This document shows, piece after piece, positions 21,600 through 29,950 of a DNA stretch of 62,319 bases. How positions within the stretch are numbered: position 1 is the first letter of the stretch; each line of letters begins with the position of its first letter. The notes under the pieces are model-generated. The model was not told the DNA's origin and did no database searches. It worked only from the letters and a program-made list of their open reading frames with translations. Position numbers and translations under genes: made by a program. The stretch is from Actinomycetota bacterium (GTDB lineage Bacteria > Actinomycetota > Acidimicrobiia > Acidimicrobiales > VFJN01): positions 1 through 62,319 of the forward strand of contig JBKPHT010000139.1 in NCBI GenBank assembly GCA_046730015.1, read 5' to 3'.

Positions 21600-22664
21600 A
21601 TGGACGGCGAGACGCGACCGCTCGCGGCCGTCGGGCTGCCGTGGTCGGCGCCGCTCGCGGGCCGGATCGACGAGCACACGATCACCAGCGCCGCGCTGGG
21701 CGGCAACCCGCTCGGCGACCCCGCCACCCGGCCGCTGTGGGTGTACGTGCCGCCCGGCTACGACGACGAGCCCGAGCGGCGGTACCCCAGCGTCTACGTG
21801 CTGCAGGGGTTCACCGGTCATCTGGCCATGTGGCGCAACCGCACACCGTTCCGCCAGCCGTTCCCGGAGACCGCCGACGCCGCCATCGCAGCCGGCACCT
21901 GCCCGCCGCTGATCGTCGTGTACGTCGACGCCTGGACCGCCCTCGGCGGCAGCCAGTTCGTCGACTCCCCCGGCACCGGCCGCTACCACACCTACCTGTG
22001 CGACGAGGTCGTGCCGTGGGTCGACGCCCGCTACCGGACGTTGCCCGGGCCCGACCACCGGGCCGTGACCGGCAAGTCGAGCGGCGGCTACGGCGCGATG
22101 GTGACCGCGCTGTGGCGGCCCGACCTGTTCGGCGCCCTCGCCACCCACGCCGGCGACGCCCTGTTCGAGCTGTGCTACGGCGAGAGCTTCCCCAAGGTGG
22201 TGCGGGCGCTGCGGGACGACTACCAGGGCAGCTACGAGCGATTCTGGGTCGACCTGCGGGGCCGGGTGCCGATGAGCCGGGAGGGCGACGGCGAGCTGAT
22301 CGAGACATGGGCCTACGCCGCCTGCTACTCGGCCGCCGACGATGGCACGGTCCGGCTGCCGTTCTCGCCTACCAGCGGCGCCCTCGTCCCCGAGGTGTGG
22401 GACCGCTGGCTGGCCCTCGACCCCGTCCGCCTCGCCGCCGCCCGCCCCGAGGCCGCCCGGGGGCTGCGGGCGGTGTGGATCGACGCCGGCACCCGGGACG
22501 AGTGGTACCTCGACCTCGGCGCCACCGCGTTCCGCGACGCGCTGTTGGCCGCCGGGCTGCCGGGCGAGCGGATGCGGTTCGAGCTGTTCCCCGCCGGCCA
22601 CGCCGGCATCGACTACCGCTACCCGCAGGCGCTCGCCTGGCTCGGCAACCGCATCAGCCCCTGA
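21600..22664 (+). CDS. Putative esterase (Fes/enterochelin esterase-like alpha/beta hydrolase)
   Basis: VYVPPGY, YPSVYVLQGF, G.S.GG elbow GKSSGG, DAG..DE. Confidence 0.9.
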   Translation: MDGETRPLAAVGLPWSAPLAGRIDEHTITSAALGGNPLGDPATRPLWVYVPPGYDDEPERRYPSVYVLQGFTGHLAMWRNRTPFRQPFPETADAAIAAGTCPPLIVVYVDAWTALGGSQFVDSPGTGRYHTYLCDEVVPWVDARYRTLPGPDHRAVTGKSSGGYGAMVTALWRPDLFGALATHAGDALFELCYGESFPKVVRALRDDYQGSYERFWVDLRGRVPMSREGDGELIETWAYAACYSAADDGTVRLPFSPTSGALVPEVWDRWLALDPVRLAAARPEAARGLRAVWIDAGTRDEWYLDLGATAFRDALLAAGLPGERMRFELFPAGHAGIDYRYPQALAWLGNRISP

Positions 22665-22747
22665 GGCGATAGCGGCCGATTCGCCGAACCCGAGGCGATA
22701 GCTGTCGGCCCCCGACCCCTGTGACCTCGAGAACCGAAGAACGGCCC

Positions 22748-25462
22748 CTATCGCCTCGCCAAGCCGGCCCGGCGGCCGAAGCGGCGGCGGGGTGGGGCGA
22801 CGCCGTCGCGGAGGAGGCGGCGGATGGCGGCCTCGTGGGCCGGGCCGAGCTTGGCGCCGTCCCGGTCGGTCAGCTCGAAGCGGTCGACGACCAGGTCGTC
22901 ACCCGCGGTCAGCGACGCGGCCAGCACCGACGCGCCGGCTGCGTCGAACACGGCGGTGACGTCGTGCAGCAGCGCGGGCCGGTCGACCGAGCGGACCTCG
23001 GCCACGGTGTGCCACGGCGACGACACGTTGTCGAAGACGACCTCGGCATCGGGCAGCGGCGCCGCGGTCGGCACGGCACCGAACCCCGCCTCGATGGCCG
23101 CCGCCAGCACCTCCCCGTCGGGCCAGCCGTCGCCGTGGACGGTGAACGCCTCGACCGCCGCGCCGTCGTCCCAGGTCACGACCACCGCGTCGGCGACGTC
23201 GAGGCCGGCCGCGCCCAGCGCCGCGGTGACCGTCGCCAGCAGGGCCCGGCGGTCGCGGGCGCCGATCTCGACCCACCAGCGCTGGTCCCCGGCCCGCCCG
23301 GTCCGGACCCGGGCCTCGTGCCGACCGGGCATCGGGGTGATGAGCTGGGCGTGGCGGGCGATGGCGTCGGGCGGCTGGCGGAGCACGTAGGACTGGGGGG
23401 CGTGGGCGATCCGCTCGACGAGCGGCGCCTGGCCGTCGACCAGGGCCGTGGCCTCGAGCCGGCGGATGTCGACCAGGCCCCGGGCGTCGGGACCGGTCAG
23501 CTCCGGCCGATCGAGCACCGCCTGGACGAGCTCGTGCAGCGACCGGAGCCGGGCCTCCTCCCACGCCTCGTGGCCGTCGCTGCGGAGAGCGCTCAACGTG
23601 TACAGCAGGCGGGCCCGCTCGGGGGTCTCGAGGTGAGTGGCGAGCTGGAGCACCTTCTCCTCGCCGAGCGCGCCGGGCTGGCGGGCCGCCGACCACAGCA
23701 GATCGCGGTCGGCCACCGCCGCGACGACCTCGGCACGGTCGTCCGGGTCGACGCCGATGCGGTCGAGCAGCGACCGGGAACGGGCGACCGCGTCGGCCAT
23801 CTCGTCGAACGCGTCGGCCAGCAGCGCCGCCAGGAACAGGCGGTCGACGTCGTCCAGCGCCCGGATCTCCAGCGCCAGCGGGTCGTCGGCGTCGAGCCGG
23901 CGCAGCCGCTCCATCGCCGGGAACCGGTACGCCTGCAGCGGGTCGATGGTGAACGGCTCGTCGTGCCGCCTGCGAAGCGCCTCGGCCAGCTCGGGCAGGC
24001 TGCGATCGAGCACGCCGGTGGTCTCGAGGAAGCGCCAGCCCCGCGCGTTGCCCCGCTCGACGACGTCGAGGAGCTGGTTGCGGGTGGCGGCGTCCCAGGC
24101 CAGTGGCGTGTCGGGCAGGCACGCCAGCCAGTCGAGCACGTCGCCGCCCGGCCGGTTGCGCCCCACGGCGACGGCGGCAGCGAGCGCGACGGGCAGAGCC
24201 GCGGCGTCGGGCGGCGTGGCCGACAGCCGGACCTCGTCGCCGGACACCTCGAGCCAGCCGCCCTCGGGCACGGGCACGTCGGGGGGCGGCCCGGTGCGAG
24301 TCGTCCCCCGGGACAGCCCCGCGTAGCGGACCTTGAGCAGCTGCGGCGTCGCCAGGGTGGTCACGAGCACGACCAGCAGGAGCGCGGCGTACAGCTCGTC
24401 GCCCAGCACGCCGGTCTGGAGGCCGATGGTCGCGAAGATGAGGCCGACCTCGCCCCGCGGCAGCATGCCGAGCCCGATGAGCGGCTTGTCCCCCGGGGTG
24501 CCGATGGCCCCGAGCGGGGAGACGAGCTTCCCCACCACGGCCACGGCCAGGAGGATGGCGGCGTCGCGCAGCACGTCGACGCGGCCGAACGCGGCGATGT
24601 CGGCGTCGATGCCGATCTGGAGGAAGAAGACGGGGATGAACAGGTGGCCCACCGGGGTGAGCTCGCGCCGGATGCGGTCGGCCTGGTCGCTGCGGTTGAG
24701 TGCGATGCCCGCGACGAAGGCGCCGACGATGGGGGCGAGCTTCGCCACGTCGGCGAGCTCGGCGAAGGCCAGGGTGAAGGCGAGGGCCAGCGCGACCAGC
24801 GTCCCGCTCGACCGGGACAACCGGGCGACCGCCCGGAACAGGGGCGGCGCCACCCGCATGCCGACGAAGACGCCGGCGACAAGGAAGGCGACGGCCCCGG
24901 CGATGATGCCGGCCACCGACACGAGCGACACCGAGCCCTCGGTGACCAGCCGGACGACGACGGTGAGCACGACCAGGCCCATGACGTCGTCGGCGACGGC
25001 CGCGCCCAACACGACGCGGGCCTCGGTGGTGGCCATGGCCCGGAGGTCGCTGAACACCCGGGCGGTGATGCCGACGCTCGTGGCGGTGAGCGCGGCGCCG
25101 ACGAACAGGGAGGTGTTGAAGTCGTCGGCGACGAACGCCTCCATGGCCCCGAGGCCGAGGACCAGCGGCGTCACCACGCCGACCACCGCGACCAGGAACG
25201 AGGCCCGCCCCACCCGGCCGAGCTCGACCAGGTCCATCTCGAGGCCGACGTCGAGCAGGAGGAGGATGACCCCGATCTCCCCGAGGACGTGGAGCACCTC
25301 GTCGCCGTGGCCGACCCAGCCCAGCACCGACGGGCCGACGAGGATGCCGGCGACGATCTCGCCGACGACGGCGGGGACGCCGATCCGTTCGGCGACCTCG
25401 GCCGCCACCTTGGCGGCGATCAGCACCACGAGGATGTTGCGCAGGACCTCTGCGACGTCCAT
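22748..25462 (-). CDS. NapA-type cation/H+ antiporter fused to the GlnD C-terminal half (degenerate HD plus two ACT domains)
   Basis: aa 1-380 carry TATSVGIT, AAVADD, GKL and GMLPRGEVGLI; the remainder carries GVLDRSLPEL, W...RL..L, SY..IARH, ARDRRALLA and FDNVSSPWHTVAEVRSVDRPALL. Confidence 0.85.
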   Translation of the reverse strand: MDVAEVLRNILVVLIAAKVAAEVAERIGVPAVVGEIVAGILVGPSVLGWVGHGDEVLHVLGEIGVILLLLDVGLEMDLVELGRVGRASFLVAVVGVVTPLVLGLGAMEAFVADDFNTSLFVGAALTATSVGITARVFSDLRAMATTEARVVLGAAVADDVMGLVVLTVVVRLVTEGSVSLVSVAGIIAGAVAFLVAGVFVGMRVAPPLFRAVARLSRSSGTLVALALAFTLAFAELADVAKLAPIVGAFVAGIALNRSDQADRIRRELTPVGHLFIPVFFLQIGIDADIAAFGRVDVLRDAAILLAVAVVGKLVSPLGAIGTPGDKPLIGLGMLPRGEVGLIFATIGLQTGVLGDELYAALLLVVLVTTLATPQLLKVRYAGLSRGTTRTGPPPDVPVPEGGWLEVSGDEVRLSATPPDAAALPVALAAAVAVGRNRPGGDVLDWLACLPDTPLAWDAATRNQLLDVVERGNARGWRFLETTGVLDRSLPELAEALRRRHDEPFTIDPLQAYRFPAMERLRRLDADDPLALEIRALDDVDRLFLAALLADAFDEMADAVARSRSLLDRIGVDPDDRAEVVAAVADRDLLWSAARQPGALGEEKVLQLATHLETPERARLLYTLSALRSDGHEAWEEARLRSLHELVQAVLDRPELTGPDARGLVDIRRLEATALVDGQAPLVERIAHAPQSYVLRQPPDAIARHAQLITPMPGRHEARVRTGRAGDQRWWVEIGARDRRALLATVTAALGAAGLDVADAVVVTWDDGAAVEAFTVHGDGWPDGEVLAAAIEAGFGAVPTAAPLPDAEVVFDNVSSPWHTVAEVRSVDRPALLHDVTAVFDAAGASVLAASLTAGDDLVVDRFELTDRDGAKLGPAHEAAIRRLLRDGVAPPRRRFGRRAGLARR

Positions 25463-25565
25463 GTCCGTCCGCTCAGGGGGTGGGTCGGGACGCGCACCGG
25501 GCGGGCACGGTGGGTCCGTGCCCGCCCGGTGTCGTCAACGGATGTGACTCAGTGTGACCGGGCGG

Positions 25566-27104
25566 TCAGACCGGCTCCTTCGAGGGCTCCTCGTTGGTGG
25601 GGCTGATGCCGCCCGTGTCGACGGCGATGACCTCGATCTGCTGGAAGTCGGGGTACGCCAGGGCGCCCATCTCGGGCAGGTCGAGGCCGGCGAGCTCGTC
25701 GGCCTGCTCGGACCGGATGCCGCCCTTCATGATCGCGTTCTGGATCTTGAAGAAGGCGAAGACGATCCCGAACATCACCGTGCACAGCACGAGGGCACCC
25801 AGCGCCTGTGCGCCGAGCTGCTCGAACTCGCCCGCCACCACGCCCTCGACGGCGGTGACGTCGGAGCCGTTCCAGCCGCCGCCGTAGCTGCCGTTGGCGA
25901 AGATGCCGACCGAGAGCACGCCCCAGATGCCGCAGACGCCGTGGACGGCGATGGCGCCCACCGGGTCGTCGACCTTGAGGACCCGCTCGATGAACTCTGC
26001 GGCGTAGATGACGATCACGCCGGCGATGCTGCCGATGACGGCCGACCAGGCGGGGCTGGTGAAGGCGCAGGGCGCGGTGATGGCCACGAGTCCCGCCAGC
26101 ATGCCGTTGACCATCATGCCCGGGTCGGGCTTGCCGGTCTTCCACATCATGGTGAACATCGCCACGGTGGCGCCGAAGGCGGCGGCGATGGCGGTGTTGG
26201 CGGCCACGACCGCGAACTGCACGTCGGTCGCGGCGAAGGTCGATGCGGCGTTGAAGCCGAACCAGCCGAACAACAGGATGAAGCAGCCCAGCATGGCCAT
26301 CGGCACGTGGTGGCCGGGCAGCGTGTTGGGCGAACCGTCGGAGTTGTACTTGCCGATGCGGGGGCCGAGGACCAGCGCGCCCGCCAGGCCGGCGACGCCG
26401 CCCATGGCGTGGACGACGCCGGAGCCGGCGAAGTCGACGTAGCCGGCGCCGAGGCCCATCGTGTCCCAGGTCTTGGCGAGCCAGCCGCCGCCCCAGGTCC
26501 AGGCGCCGAAGATCGGGTAGAAGATGGCGCCGCAGAACAGGCCCCAGCCGACGAACGCCTTCCACTTCCACCGCTCGGCCATGGCCCCGGTGGGGATGGT
26601 GGCGGTGGTGTCCATGAAGGCCACCATGTAGAGGAAGAAGCCGATCACCGCGGCACCGCCGGCGGTCTGGATGGCGTCCCCGGAGAGGGCGAACCCGCCC
26701 TGCCACAGGAAGACCCAGTTGCCGCTCCCGATGAGCGCGTCGCCGACCGGCGCCGTGTAGCCGAAGTCGTAGCCCGGCAGGACGTAGCTGAACCCGCCGA
26801 ACATCAAGCCGTAGCCGAGCAGGAAGTAGCCGACGAAGCCGAGCCCGAAGATGGCGAAGTTGGTCGACACGACGTGCGCGGCGTGCTTGGCCCGGCAGAA
26901 GCCGGTCTCTACCAGGGCGAAGCCCGCCTGCATGAAGATGACGAGGACGGCGCCGATGACGATCCACAGCAGGTTGGTCTGCTGGCCGAGGGTGGTGACC
27001 GCCTCGGCGGGATCGGCGTCCTGCGCGCCGGCTATCGCTGGTGTGGCGAGGAGGACGGCGCCGGCGACGGCGAGCCCGGCCCCCACTTTCCGCCCGAACG
27101 ACAT
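25566..27104 (-). CDS. amtB: Ammonium transporter
   Basis: GFALVETG, GAMAER, DFAGSGVVH, WFGFN, DDPVGAIAVHG; twin His intact; signal peptide. Confidence 0.97.
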   Translation of the reverse strand: MSFGRKVGAGLAVAGAVLLATPAIAGAQDADPAEAVTTLGQQTNLLWIVIGAVLVIFMQAGFALVETGFCRAKHAAHVVSTNFAIFGLGFVGYFLLGYGLMFGGFSYVLPGYDFGYTAPVGDALIGSGNWVFLWQGGFALSGDAIQTAGGAAVIGFFLYMVAFMDTTATIPTGAMAERWKWKAFVGWGLFCGAIFYPIFGAWTWGGGWLAKTWDTMGLGAGYVDFAGSGVVHAMGGVAGLAGALVLGPRIGKYNSDGSPNTLPGHHVPMAMLGCFILLFGWFGFNAASTFAATDVQFAVVAANTAIAAAFGATVAMFTMMWKTGKPDPGMMVNGMLAGLVAITAPCAFTSPAWSAVIGSIAGVIVIYAAEFIERVLKVDDPVGAIAVHGVCGIWGVLSVGIFANGSYGGGWNGSDVTAVEGVVAGEFEQLGAQALGALVLCTVMFGIVFAFFKIQNAIMKGGIRSEQADELAGLDLPEMGALAYPDFQQIEVIAVDTGGISPTNEEPSKEPV

Positions 27105-27366
27105 GCCGGCTCTCGCATCACGACGAGGGCCAAAGGACATGGGTACGCGTTCCTTTCGTACGTCCCGAGAAGGAGGCCCGACGCCTTTGTCTGACCCGAT
27201 GGTGAACGTATGGACGATCTGTCACGCGTCCATTGCCCGATGATGAACCCCCGTGTTCGATGTGCTGTCCGCTTTCTGAACACCGCTGTCCAGTAGTCGC
27301 GCGCGTTTCTGACGACCACCTGACCGGTTGCGGGCCAGGCCTGCCGGGGTGCAACACTCTGCCGCC

Positions 27367-27567
27367 ATGGCAGAGGAGACGAGCGTCACCAAGGTCCGCG
27401 TCGGCCTGGCGTTGATCACCGTCGTCGTGGTGGTCGCTCTGGTGATGATCGCCGTCATCGACTCGCCCGCCGGCAAGGCGGTCATGTTCGCCATCGCCGT
27501 CACCGCCGTCGTCCGGGCGTACCTGCTGTTCCGGTCGCTCCGGCAGGAGCAGCGAGCCGCCGACTGA
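27367..27567 (+). CDS. Small two-TM membrane protein
   Basis: Two hydrophobic helices; divergent from amtB. Confidence 0.7.
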   Translation: MAEETSVTKVRVGLALITVVVVVALVMIAVIDSPAGKAVMFAIAVTAVVRAYLLFRSLRQEQRAAD

Positions 27568-27585
27568 GGCTCGACGGCTGCGCCG

Positions 27586-28038
27586 TCAGGGCGCGCCGTC
27601 GCGGGCCAGCTCGGCGTTCGACCAGCCGGGGCGGCCGGTCAGCTCGTCGCCGAACCAGTCGGGCGGGGTGAAGCGGTCGGCCTCCTCCCGCGTCGGGAAC
27701 TCGACCTCGACCACGGCCAGCCCGTCCAGATCGCCGCCGTACAGGTCGAGCTCGGCCGTGCCGCCGTCGACTTCGACCCGGTGGCGGGTCTTCTCCAGGT
27801 GACGGTCGCCGGCCAGCGCCCAGAGCTCAGCGAAGGCGTCGGCGTCGATCCCGACCTCGACCTCGGTCCGCTCGAGGCCGGAGCCGCCCTTCACGGTGAG
27901 GACCTGGTCGTCGCCGTCGCTGCGGACCCGGACCTCGACGCCGCCGTCGACCGCGACGTAGGCCTGCCGCAGCGGCACCCCGTCCCCGAGCCCGTCGGGC
28001 ACCCGGACGACCCGGAACTTCCGCTCGATCTCGGACAC
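27586..28038 (-). CDS. CYTH domain protein
   Basis: EIERKF, RVR, LTVK, ERTEVE, EKTR, EVEF motifs. Confidence 0.92.
   Translation of the reverse strand: MSEIERKFRVVRVPDGLGDGVPLRQAYVAVDGGVEVRVRSDGDDQVLTVKGGSGLERTEVEVGIDADAFAELWALAGDRHLEKTRHRVEVDGGTAELDLYGGDLDGLAVVEVEFPTREEADRFTPPDWFGDELTGRPGWSNAELARDGAP

Positions 28039-28698: not shown

Positions 28699-29950
<1,252 letters not shown>

Follow-up and report, generated by a model that had tools for sequence, protein, structure and literature searches.

A window of 62,319 nucleotides, the whole stretch of DNA analysed here, comes from a soil actinobacterium of the class Acidimicrobiia, represented by a metagenome-assembled genome (MAG) fragmented into 465 contigs. 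It encodes a protein of 904 amino acids (P0002) in which a NapA-type CPA2 antiporter is joined to a C-terminal tail derived from the regulatory half of GlnD. On balance we favour the view that this fusion is a cation/H+ exchanger gated by nitrogen status, probably by glutamine, through its GlnD-derived tail, and that it works together with an ammonium transporter (Amt); the identity of the ligand, the gating and its direction, and the ion transported are what we infer. The original prediction, made from the sequence alone, had described one intact open reading frame (ORF) of 904 residues at 22748–25462, which proved correct, and was silent on the strand: the frame runs uninterrupted on the minus strand, from 25462 to 22748. 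The G+C content is 72–79% across the ORF, as in its surroundings, and there is no compositional break at the junction of the domains. Every motif quoted in that prediction could be located at residue level, both in the transporter (TATSVGIT at 126–133, DD at 158–159, GKL at 311–313 and GMLPRGE at 332–338) and in the tail (GVLDRSLPEL at 483–492, SY..IARH at 691–704, ARDRRALLA at 735–743 and FDNVSSPWHT...DRPALL at 810–832). The full-length structure referred to below is an AlphaFold2 model from 100 family members. The parts of the protein are as follows:

22748 to 25462, minus strand: the whole ORF, CPA2 antiporter plus GlnD-derived tail (AlphaFold2 mean pLDDT 86.7)
24305 to 25462, minus strand: NapA-type CPA2 module, residues 1–386 (PF00999, phmmer, Foldseek, 100 homologues)
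24203 to 24304, minus strand: linker and conserved beta-hairpin (GGWLEV...L..PP), residues 387–420 (strands at 404–413 in the model)
23318 to 24202, minus strand: all-helical GlnD-like region including the pseudo-HD, residues 421–715 (TIGR01693, MAFFT, model)
23078 to 23317, minus strand: ACT domain 1, residues 716–795 (fold in the model; aligns to GlnD ACT1)
22793 to 23050, minus strand: ACT domain 2, residues 805–890 (Pfam ACT; aligns to GlnD ACT2)

That the N-terminal part is a NapA-like CPA2 antiporter with intact transport motifs, as had been proposed, is borne out by profile, structural and family comparisons. Pfam Na_H_Exchanger (PF00999) matches residues 15–373 (1e-63), and TIGR00932 scores 180 bits, under its subfamily cut-off of 238. 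In a phmmer search of the Protein Data Bank (PDB) the best solved relative is NapA of Thermus (E 1e-57), and in that alignment ATSVGITARV, DD, the lysine of VGKL and GMxPRGEVGLI are all matched, so that D158-D159 correspond to NapA D156/D157 and K312 to NapA K305, the lysine of transmembrane helix 10 (TM10). The model compares by Foldseek with the inward-facing NapA structure 5bz2 at a TM-score of 0.90 and 37% identity, with KefC next at 25%, and the module is modelled, like NapA, with 13 transmembrane helices. The DD pair, K312 and the two crossover motifs (126–133 and 332–341) are invariant in 100 homologues, at identities down to 42%, which argues for selection on transport itself. On sequence grounds the protein is thus a member of the CPA2/NapA clade. 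Exchangers selective for K+ have a 'QD' motif together with a threonine, while Na+/H+ exchangers have 'ND' or 'DD', and NapA has a valine at the position of that threonine (PMC11150392). By these markers (DD and Val130) the module looks like an electrogenic Na+(Li+)/H+ exchanger, although such markers leave specificity unsettled, and K+ or NH4+ could also be the ion carried.

In GlnD the N-terminal domain modifies PII, the HD domain removes the modification, and glutamine controls the activity of the protein (PMC4285133); to respond to glutamine GlnD needs its ACT domains, as PMC11190351 summarises Zhang et al. 2010. Several comparisons agree with the proposal that the tail follows GlnD collinearly, beyond what generic ACT proteins would give. 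The NCBIfam model TIGR01693 (GlnD) aligns residues 451–886 to profile positions 369–847 of 850 (E 5.8e-27), and the remaining NCBIfam matches on the tail are GlnD models without exception. All 22 homologous tails taken from different genomes likewise match GlnD models, TIGR01693 among them in every case (best 9e-40); non-GlnD matches are confined to two minor families, in six members and one member. Searched in reverse, a profile of the tail, with which true fusions score more than about 290 bits, recovers canonical GlnDs phylum-wide at 1e-40 to 1e-70, in matches that cover almost all of the profile. When the 22 tails were aligned by MAFFT with five canonical GlnDs, the two sets stayed collinear from a point some 90 residues ahead of the HD motif to the C-terminus. 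As the matches are almost exclusively to GlnD models, the likeness goes well past anything chance would give and is specific to GlnD rather than to ACT proteins at large; weak Pfam matches to plant ACR/bHLH ACT-like models also occur in family members. The linker, in which W403, L413 and P417 are nearly invariant in the 100 homologues, may already be of GlnD origin at residues 387–420 to judge from the family HMM, whose residues 390–460 give marginal but collinear matches to GlnD (E ~0.02).

The fusion is nevertheless, by its sequence, not a GlnD. Its TIGR01693 score of 94.3 bits stands against a curated cut-off of 519.4, and against 618 bits for the true GlnD of the same genome. Profile positions 1–368 are unmatched and Pfam reports no PF08335, so the nucleotidyltransferase and PF08335 domains are absent, and the idea that a NapA-type transporter has taken the place of the transferase region stands. 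A canonical neighbour GlnD possesses both domains. The profile scan matched Na_H_Exchanger, ACT and GlnD models, and in the Pfam scan of the fusion the HD profile PF01966 found no match. The HD-like helical bundle of the original prediction was therefore right in part: the scaffold is collinear with that of GlnD, but every metal ligand has gone, in all 22 aligned tails as compared with the five canonical GlnDs. 'AYHxFTVDRH' of GlnD has become 'DPFxxDP', 'LLHDxGKG' has become 'LxLDxxG', 'HHLLL' has become 'xDxxLL' and 'EADSxATGP' has become 'LALGxL'; the motifs in the window are HDEPFTIDP (500–508), LLADAF (547–552) and ADRDLL (584–589). With all the HD metal ligands lost, the region is to be regarded as a pseudo-HD scaffold, that is, a pseudo-enzyme.

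The two C-terminal ACT domains that had been read from the sequence were found again by Pfam, in the models and by alignment to GlnD. Pfam ACT matches residues 820–870, the models contain two beta-alpha-beta-beta-alpha-beta units, and both align to ACT1 and ACT2 of the genome's own GlnD (E 4e-5), the 'D-x-G-L-L' ('DR.GLL') loops being kept in the aligned tails. Landmarks are ARDRRALLA (735–743) and the invariant W764 in the first domain, and FDNVSSPWHT (810–819), VDRPALL (826–832) and DRFEL (860–864) in the second. Over the 100 homologues the family has invariant or near-invariant residues of its own: R474, W476, R477, W764, S815-P816-W817, D860 and F862. Modelled alone, the tail reaches a pLDDT of 89.6. 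Foldseek matches of this model to the PDB are weak throughout (2e-3 for the helical body of class II CCA-adding enzymes, besides tandem-ACT proteins), the only PDB entries recovered with a profile of the tail were ACT domains of Rel, and no solved GlnD structure was found in the PDB searches.

The same architecture recurs widely in Acidimicrobiia. A word-indexed search with the tail gave 117 clusters at 90% identity, nearly all of about 900 residues with Na_H_Exchanger and ACT, at 36–97% identity to the query, and an exhaustive search gave dozens of full-length clusters at the 50% level; the full-length homologues used here (n = 100) are 42–98% identical. Their database names are generic ('cation:proton antiporter' or 'KefB'). 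In a scan of one genome per species, 186 genomes encode a relative. In the best 80 of these 186 the fusion is plain to see at 78 loci, and the remaining two are interrupted by the end of a contig; all 80 come from MAGs, most of them with the labels Acidimicrobiales, Microthrixaceae, Iamiaceae, Acidimicrobiaceae or Acidimicrobiia. Metagenomes of soil and rhizosphere from many studies, at least 20 runs in all, contain nearly identical sequence, and at the junction itself (about 24203–24305) support comes from single contigs of two independent soil metagenome runs, 799 and 957 nt long, which cross 23900–24631. The notion that the gene is an assembly chimera or a gene-calling artefact, made up of a transporter gene and a truncated glnD, had nothing found in its favour beyond the fragmentation of the source MAG. 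Against it stand more than 115 clusters and 78 of the best 80 species loci that share the architecture of about 900 residues, the uninterrupted frame, and a model that is confident throughout. We regard its probability as negligible, and it was rejected on the strength of the recurrent architecture and the independent contigs over the junction.

A quick maximum-likelihood tree of 33 tails and 10 C-terminal halves of canonical GlnDs falls into two groups divided by one branch (100% SH-aLRT support, length 1.53), and both groups split similarly, between the class of the window and another class of the phylum. Such a parallel internal topology in the sequence tree fits a single old event of duplication and fusion, followed mostly by vertical descent. 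Apparent decay of the gene was seen at a few loci. Two genomes carry truncated remnants directly beside the long Amt described below (G095:C1:1178598-1181187 and G191:C37:7653-10077), which are tail-only or N-terminal, one of them with an in-frame TGA, and at L053 (7240–8309) the CPA2 part is broken over three frames. The fusion loci L072, L074, L090, L117 and L125 are labelled Acidobacteria/Acidobacteriota or Bifidobacteriaceae; as their sequences resemble those of Acidimicrobiia members, the bins may carry wrong labels or the genes may have been transferred. The context of P0197, a stand-alone CPA2 relative, is uninformative, its contig being only 2.9 kb long.

The link to nitrogen is stronger than the original prediction knew: an amt gene lies directly upstream of the fusion, and this pairing recurs across the family. 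Two nitrogen genes of the window are concerned:

25566 to 27140, minus strand: P0271, a long Amt-family ammonium transporter of 524 residues, directly upstream of the fusion (Pfam Ammonium_transp 4.5e-100; TIGR00836 1.8e-99)
29579 to 29920, minus strand: second P-II (GlnK/GlnB-type) gene, with Tyr51 kept (Pfam P-II 2.7e-28)

Orthologues of the long Amt, at 55–90% identity, adjoin the fusion in other genomes. Flanks of about ±8 kb were viewed at 34 distinct fusion loci, and at 26 of them an amt gene lies no more than about 1.3 kb away, upstream, downstream or divergent; its product is usually an orthologue of the long Amt of the window (55–74% identity in this set), the gene usually lacks a glnK of its own, and some of the loci carry amtB-glnK-glnD, or one or two PII genes, as well. 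In the best 80 species loci, where the view was limited to about 1.7 kb upstream and 3 kb downstream, an Amt is visible in 43, in both gene orders; within these 80 of 186, it is present at all ten full-length loci whose tails are nearest that of the window (best-segment identity 47–70%). Co-occurrence was assessed in 201 genomes of the class, counting the long Amt at ≥59% identity: it is present in 21 of the 23 genomes that bear the fusion, as against 18 of the 178 others (Fisher p = 8e-16), and two of those 18 are the genomes with truncated fusion remnants beside the Amt.

Actinobacterial glnD is located in amtB-glnK-glnD (PMC4285133). That canonical operon is present on another contig of the same genome (C381), where the HD motif of GlnD is intact, and the genome as a whole has two Amt, two PII, one GlnD and one fusion. 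The fusion must therefore be an added paralogue and not a replacement for GlnD; the idea that the window holds a rewired sole locus was rejected for the same reason. The window locus does not have the canonical order: amt is followed directly by the fusion, and between amt and the P-II gene, located 2.4 kb further upstream and on the same strand, there are other ORFs. These are two minus-strand ORFs and a small plus-strand ORF between the CYTH gene and the promoter region of amt, and the opposite orientation of the latter implies that PII and amt are not one operon. The first minus-strand ORF (29571–28825, 248 amino acids) follows the P-II gene and could not be annotated; the second (28818–27586, 410 amino acids) has a C-terminal CYTH domain and a long Arg/Gly-rich N-terminus that looks over-extended, in high-GC DNA. 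The small ORF (27328–27567, plus strand, with an ATG at 27367) would encode 66 hydrophobic, two-helix-like residues, MAEETSVTKVRVGLALITVVVVVALVMIAVID.... On the other side, a putative esterase ORF (PF00756; 20958–22664, plus strand) converges on the 3' end of the fusion gene, with 83 bp between the stop codons.

Further arrangements were seen elsewhere in the family. On a 4.1-Mb MAG contig (L006, 383–11666) glnD, PII, the long amt, the fusion, a second PII, amtB and a stand-alone Na_H_Exchanger gene lie within 11 kb. A short Trans_reg_C gene (OmpR-type winged-helix) sits between amt and the fusion in a distant member (L007, 5678–5995), and another follows a stand-alone CPA2 relative (L040, 2123–2707), so Trans_reg_C may be a recurring regulator partner.

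The spacer of 103 nt between amt and the fusion has a minimum free energy of –57 kcal/mol (z = –4.8) and contains one marked feature:

25495 to 25531, minus strand: perfect 16-bp GC-rich hairpin, CACCGGGCGGGCACGG-ACCCA-CCGTGCCCGCCCGGTG, with no T-run after it

The ratio of the two products might be set by this hairpin, acting as a partial terminator or by stabilising the mRNA. Contigs X5, X7 and X28 have one additional G behind 25551. A search of 22400–27700 gave neither sigma-70 promoters nor T-tailed terminators, and the GlnR-box-like pattern GTNAC-N6-GNAAC has no match upstream of amt, its matches over the window being fewer than chance predicts. In soil and rhizosphere runs labelled as RNA-seq a few short, low-depth contigs match the gene at 96–100% identity, and one cDNA contig of 258 nt spans 25309–25565, over the hairpin to the stop codon of amt. 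These hint that the gene is expressed, and that read-through may occur, although depth is low and the contigs could be DNA carry-over.

The mechanism that we propose for the fusion is that its ACT pair would bind a metabolite that reports nitrogen status, most likely glutamine, by descent from GlnD; that the pseudo-HD and helical region would relay the resulting conformational change to the cytoplasmic face of the transporter; and that this would open or close ion/H+ exchange, much as RCK domains gate KefC. The fusion would work with its dedicated neighbouring Amt, so that ion and pH balance, or ammonium release, is tuned to the uptake and assimilation of ammonium. Several observations weigh against this proposal. 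The ACT domains are only about 29% identical to those of the genome's own GlnD, and their ligand specificity may differ; the contact between tail and transporter is undefined in the model, for which the pTM is 0.64 at full length and 0.82 for the tail alone; and a physiological reason to pair an exchanger of Na+/H+ type with ammonium uptake is not obvious. Eight of the 34 loci have no nitrogen genes within ±8 kb, four of them having the long Amt 14–21 kb away on the same contig. Co-transcription is also made uncertain by the strong hairpin between amt and the fusion, which a single low-depth cDNA contig spans. A more specific form of the proposal, which we put forward tentatively, is that a glutamine-gated NH4+ (or K+)/H+ exchanger and the dedicated Amt together make up a valve for ammonium uptake and release, in which Amt would import ammonium and the glutamine level would open or close the exchanger against overload, futile cycling and pH upset.

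Other readings of the tail have to be set beside these. The HD domain of GlnD handles modified PII, and GlnK gates AmtB. It is conceivable, if unlikely, that PII and not a small molecule controls the antiporter, the dead HD serving as a docking site for GlnK, or for adenylylated or uridylylated GlnK, so that PII status gates the exchanger in the way that GlnK gates AmtB. The pseudo-HD does have family-specific surface residues that are nearly invariant (R474, W476, R477, D585, L588, H610, R618 and Y621), PII genes are often near (in the window, and one or two in L006, L046, L048 and L049), and the long Amt beside the fusion tends to come without its own glnK. PII adjacency is inconsistent, however, most loci having amt and the fusion only, and both ACT domains, the glutamine-sensing part of GlnD, are conserved, which a pure PII dock would not need. 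We think it a good deal less probable than our own proposal that in place of glutamine the tail senses a different ligand, for instance some other amino acid, a nucleotide or a metabolite; the protein would then be a general metabolite-gated Na+/H+ antiporter for pH or salt homeostasis, whose proximity to amt reflected shared regulation and not joint function. ACT domains do bind many different ligands, those of the tail have diverged from GlnD and have W764 and S815-P816-W817 as invariant residues of their own, and the transporter markers are those of an Na+/H+ antiporter. This is hard to reconcile with the coupling to Amt over two classes, in both gene orders and in the phyletic profile, if there is no tie to ammonium, and the homology of the tail is to GlnD specifically.

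It is improbable, finally, that the chief role of the fusion is to regulate or sense the neighbouring Amt as a membrane-tethered functional substitute for GlnK, with the CPA2 module as an anchor or an ion/pH sensor (a 'transceptor') instead of a bulk transporter. The usual lack of glnK beside the partner Amt would suit such a role, as would the position of the fusion after amt, in the place of glnK-glnD, but all the CPA2 transport residues (DD, K312 and the crossover motifs) have stayed invariant throughout the homologues compared. Our preference accordingly stays with an exchanger gated by nitrogen status through the GlnD-derived tail.

The GlnD sensor half has here been detached from its enzyme and joined to a membrane transporter, with relatives in at least 186 species-level genomes, mostly of uncultured Acidimicrobiia of soil, sludge and water. 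Literature searches found no papers on GlnD with an antiporter and ACT, or on CPA2 with an ACT domain; this fits the earlier statement that no protein of such architecture had been described, though the family is common in databases under its generic names. If the gating is real, it would give bacteria a new means of letting nitrogen status act on ion and pH homeostasis, or on ammonium release, and would define a new class of ligand-gated CPA2 exchanger beside KefC. Were the valve for ammonium to prove true, the GlnD sensor module would for the first time be known to have an output besides PII modification, and Acidimicrobiia would have a PII-independent nitrogen control of membrane transport. 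How the partner Amt is regulated becomes a testable question, since the fusion is paired so steadily with one Amt subtype that has no glnK of its own. As PDB searches gave no solved GlnD, the tail of the fusion, a compact and catalytically silent version, may also be a handy object for studying how the ACT domains of GlnD read glutamine.

Among known systems the transporter is closest to NapA of Thermus thermophilus, an electrogenic CPA2 Na+/H+ antiporter (4bwz, 5bz2), with which it shares ATSVGIT, PRGEVGLI, the DD pair and the TM10 lysine; NapA ends after its last transmembrane helix, whereas the fusion adds some 520 cytoplasmic residues. With GlnD (TIGR01693) it shares a collinear stretch from about profile position 369 to the C-terminus, comprising the helical region, the HD scaffold and the two ACT domains, and an amt/PII neighbourhood; it differs in having neither the nucleotidyltransferase and PF08335 domains nor the HD ligands, in its score below the cut-off, and in that the tails form a separate clade. 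The eukaryotic CPA exchangers SOS1 and SLC9C1 also consist of a transporter with a long C-terminal sensor, and are matched by Foldseek through the transporter fold, but their regulatory domains (CNBD, VSD and autoinhibitory helices) are unrelated and the full-length superposition has an rmsd above 20 Å. AmhT and AmhM of alkaliphilic Bacillus are reportedly a CPA2 system for K+/NH4+ efflux with a separate KTN regulator; they would be an earlier example of a CPA2 transporter that takes part in ammonium homeostasis and has a regulatory partner in the cytoplasm.

GlnD-like ACT domains are known as portable glutamine-responsive modules with unrelated outputs, in plant ACR proteins and in the Chlamydomonas alpha-amylase AMA2, and glutamine activates an unrelated enzyme through a GlnD-like ACT domain (PMC11190351); these have the ACT domains only, whereas the fusion keeps the whole post-transferase half of GlnD, HD scaffold included. 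In KefC, direct contact with the fused RCK domains keeps the CPA2 module inhibited, and activation on their detachment was proposed by the authors (PMC11150392). KefC and KefB, which are glutathione-gated K+/H+ systems (8bxg), thus share with the fusion a CPA2 transporter, 25% identical, and a fused C-terminal gate that senses a ligand. They differ in that their sensor is an RCK/KTN domain binding AMP and GSH and that they have the 'QD' motif and Thr127, where the fusion has DD and Val130. No RCK or TrkA match was found in the fusion with Pfam or NCBIfam, the KefB and KefC models covering residues 3–385 only, and for want of an RCK domain its sequence is not that of a Kef protein. Taken together, these comparisons lead us to propose that the fusion operates, in the manner of KefC, as a CPA2 exchanger gated by a ligand, with a sensor descended from GlnD.

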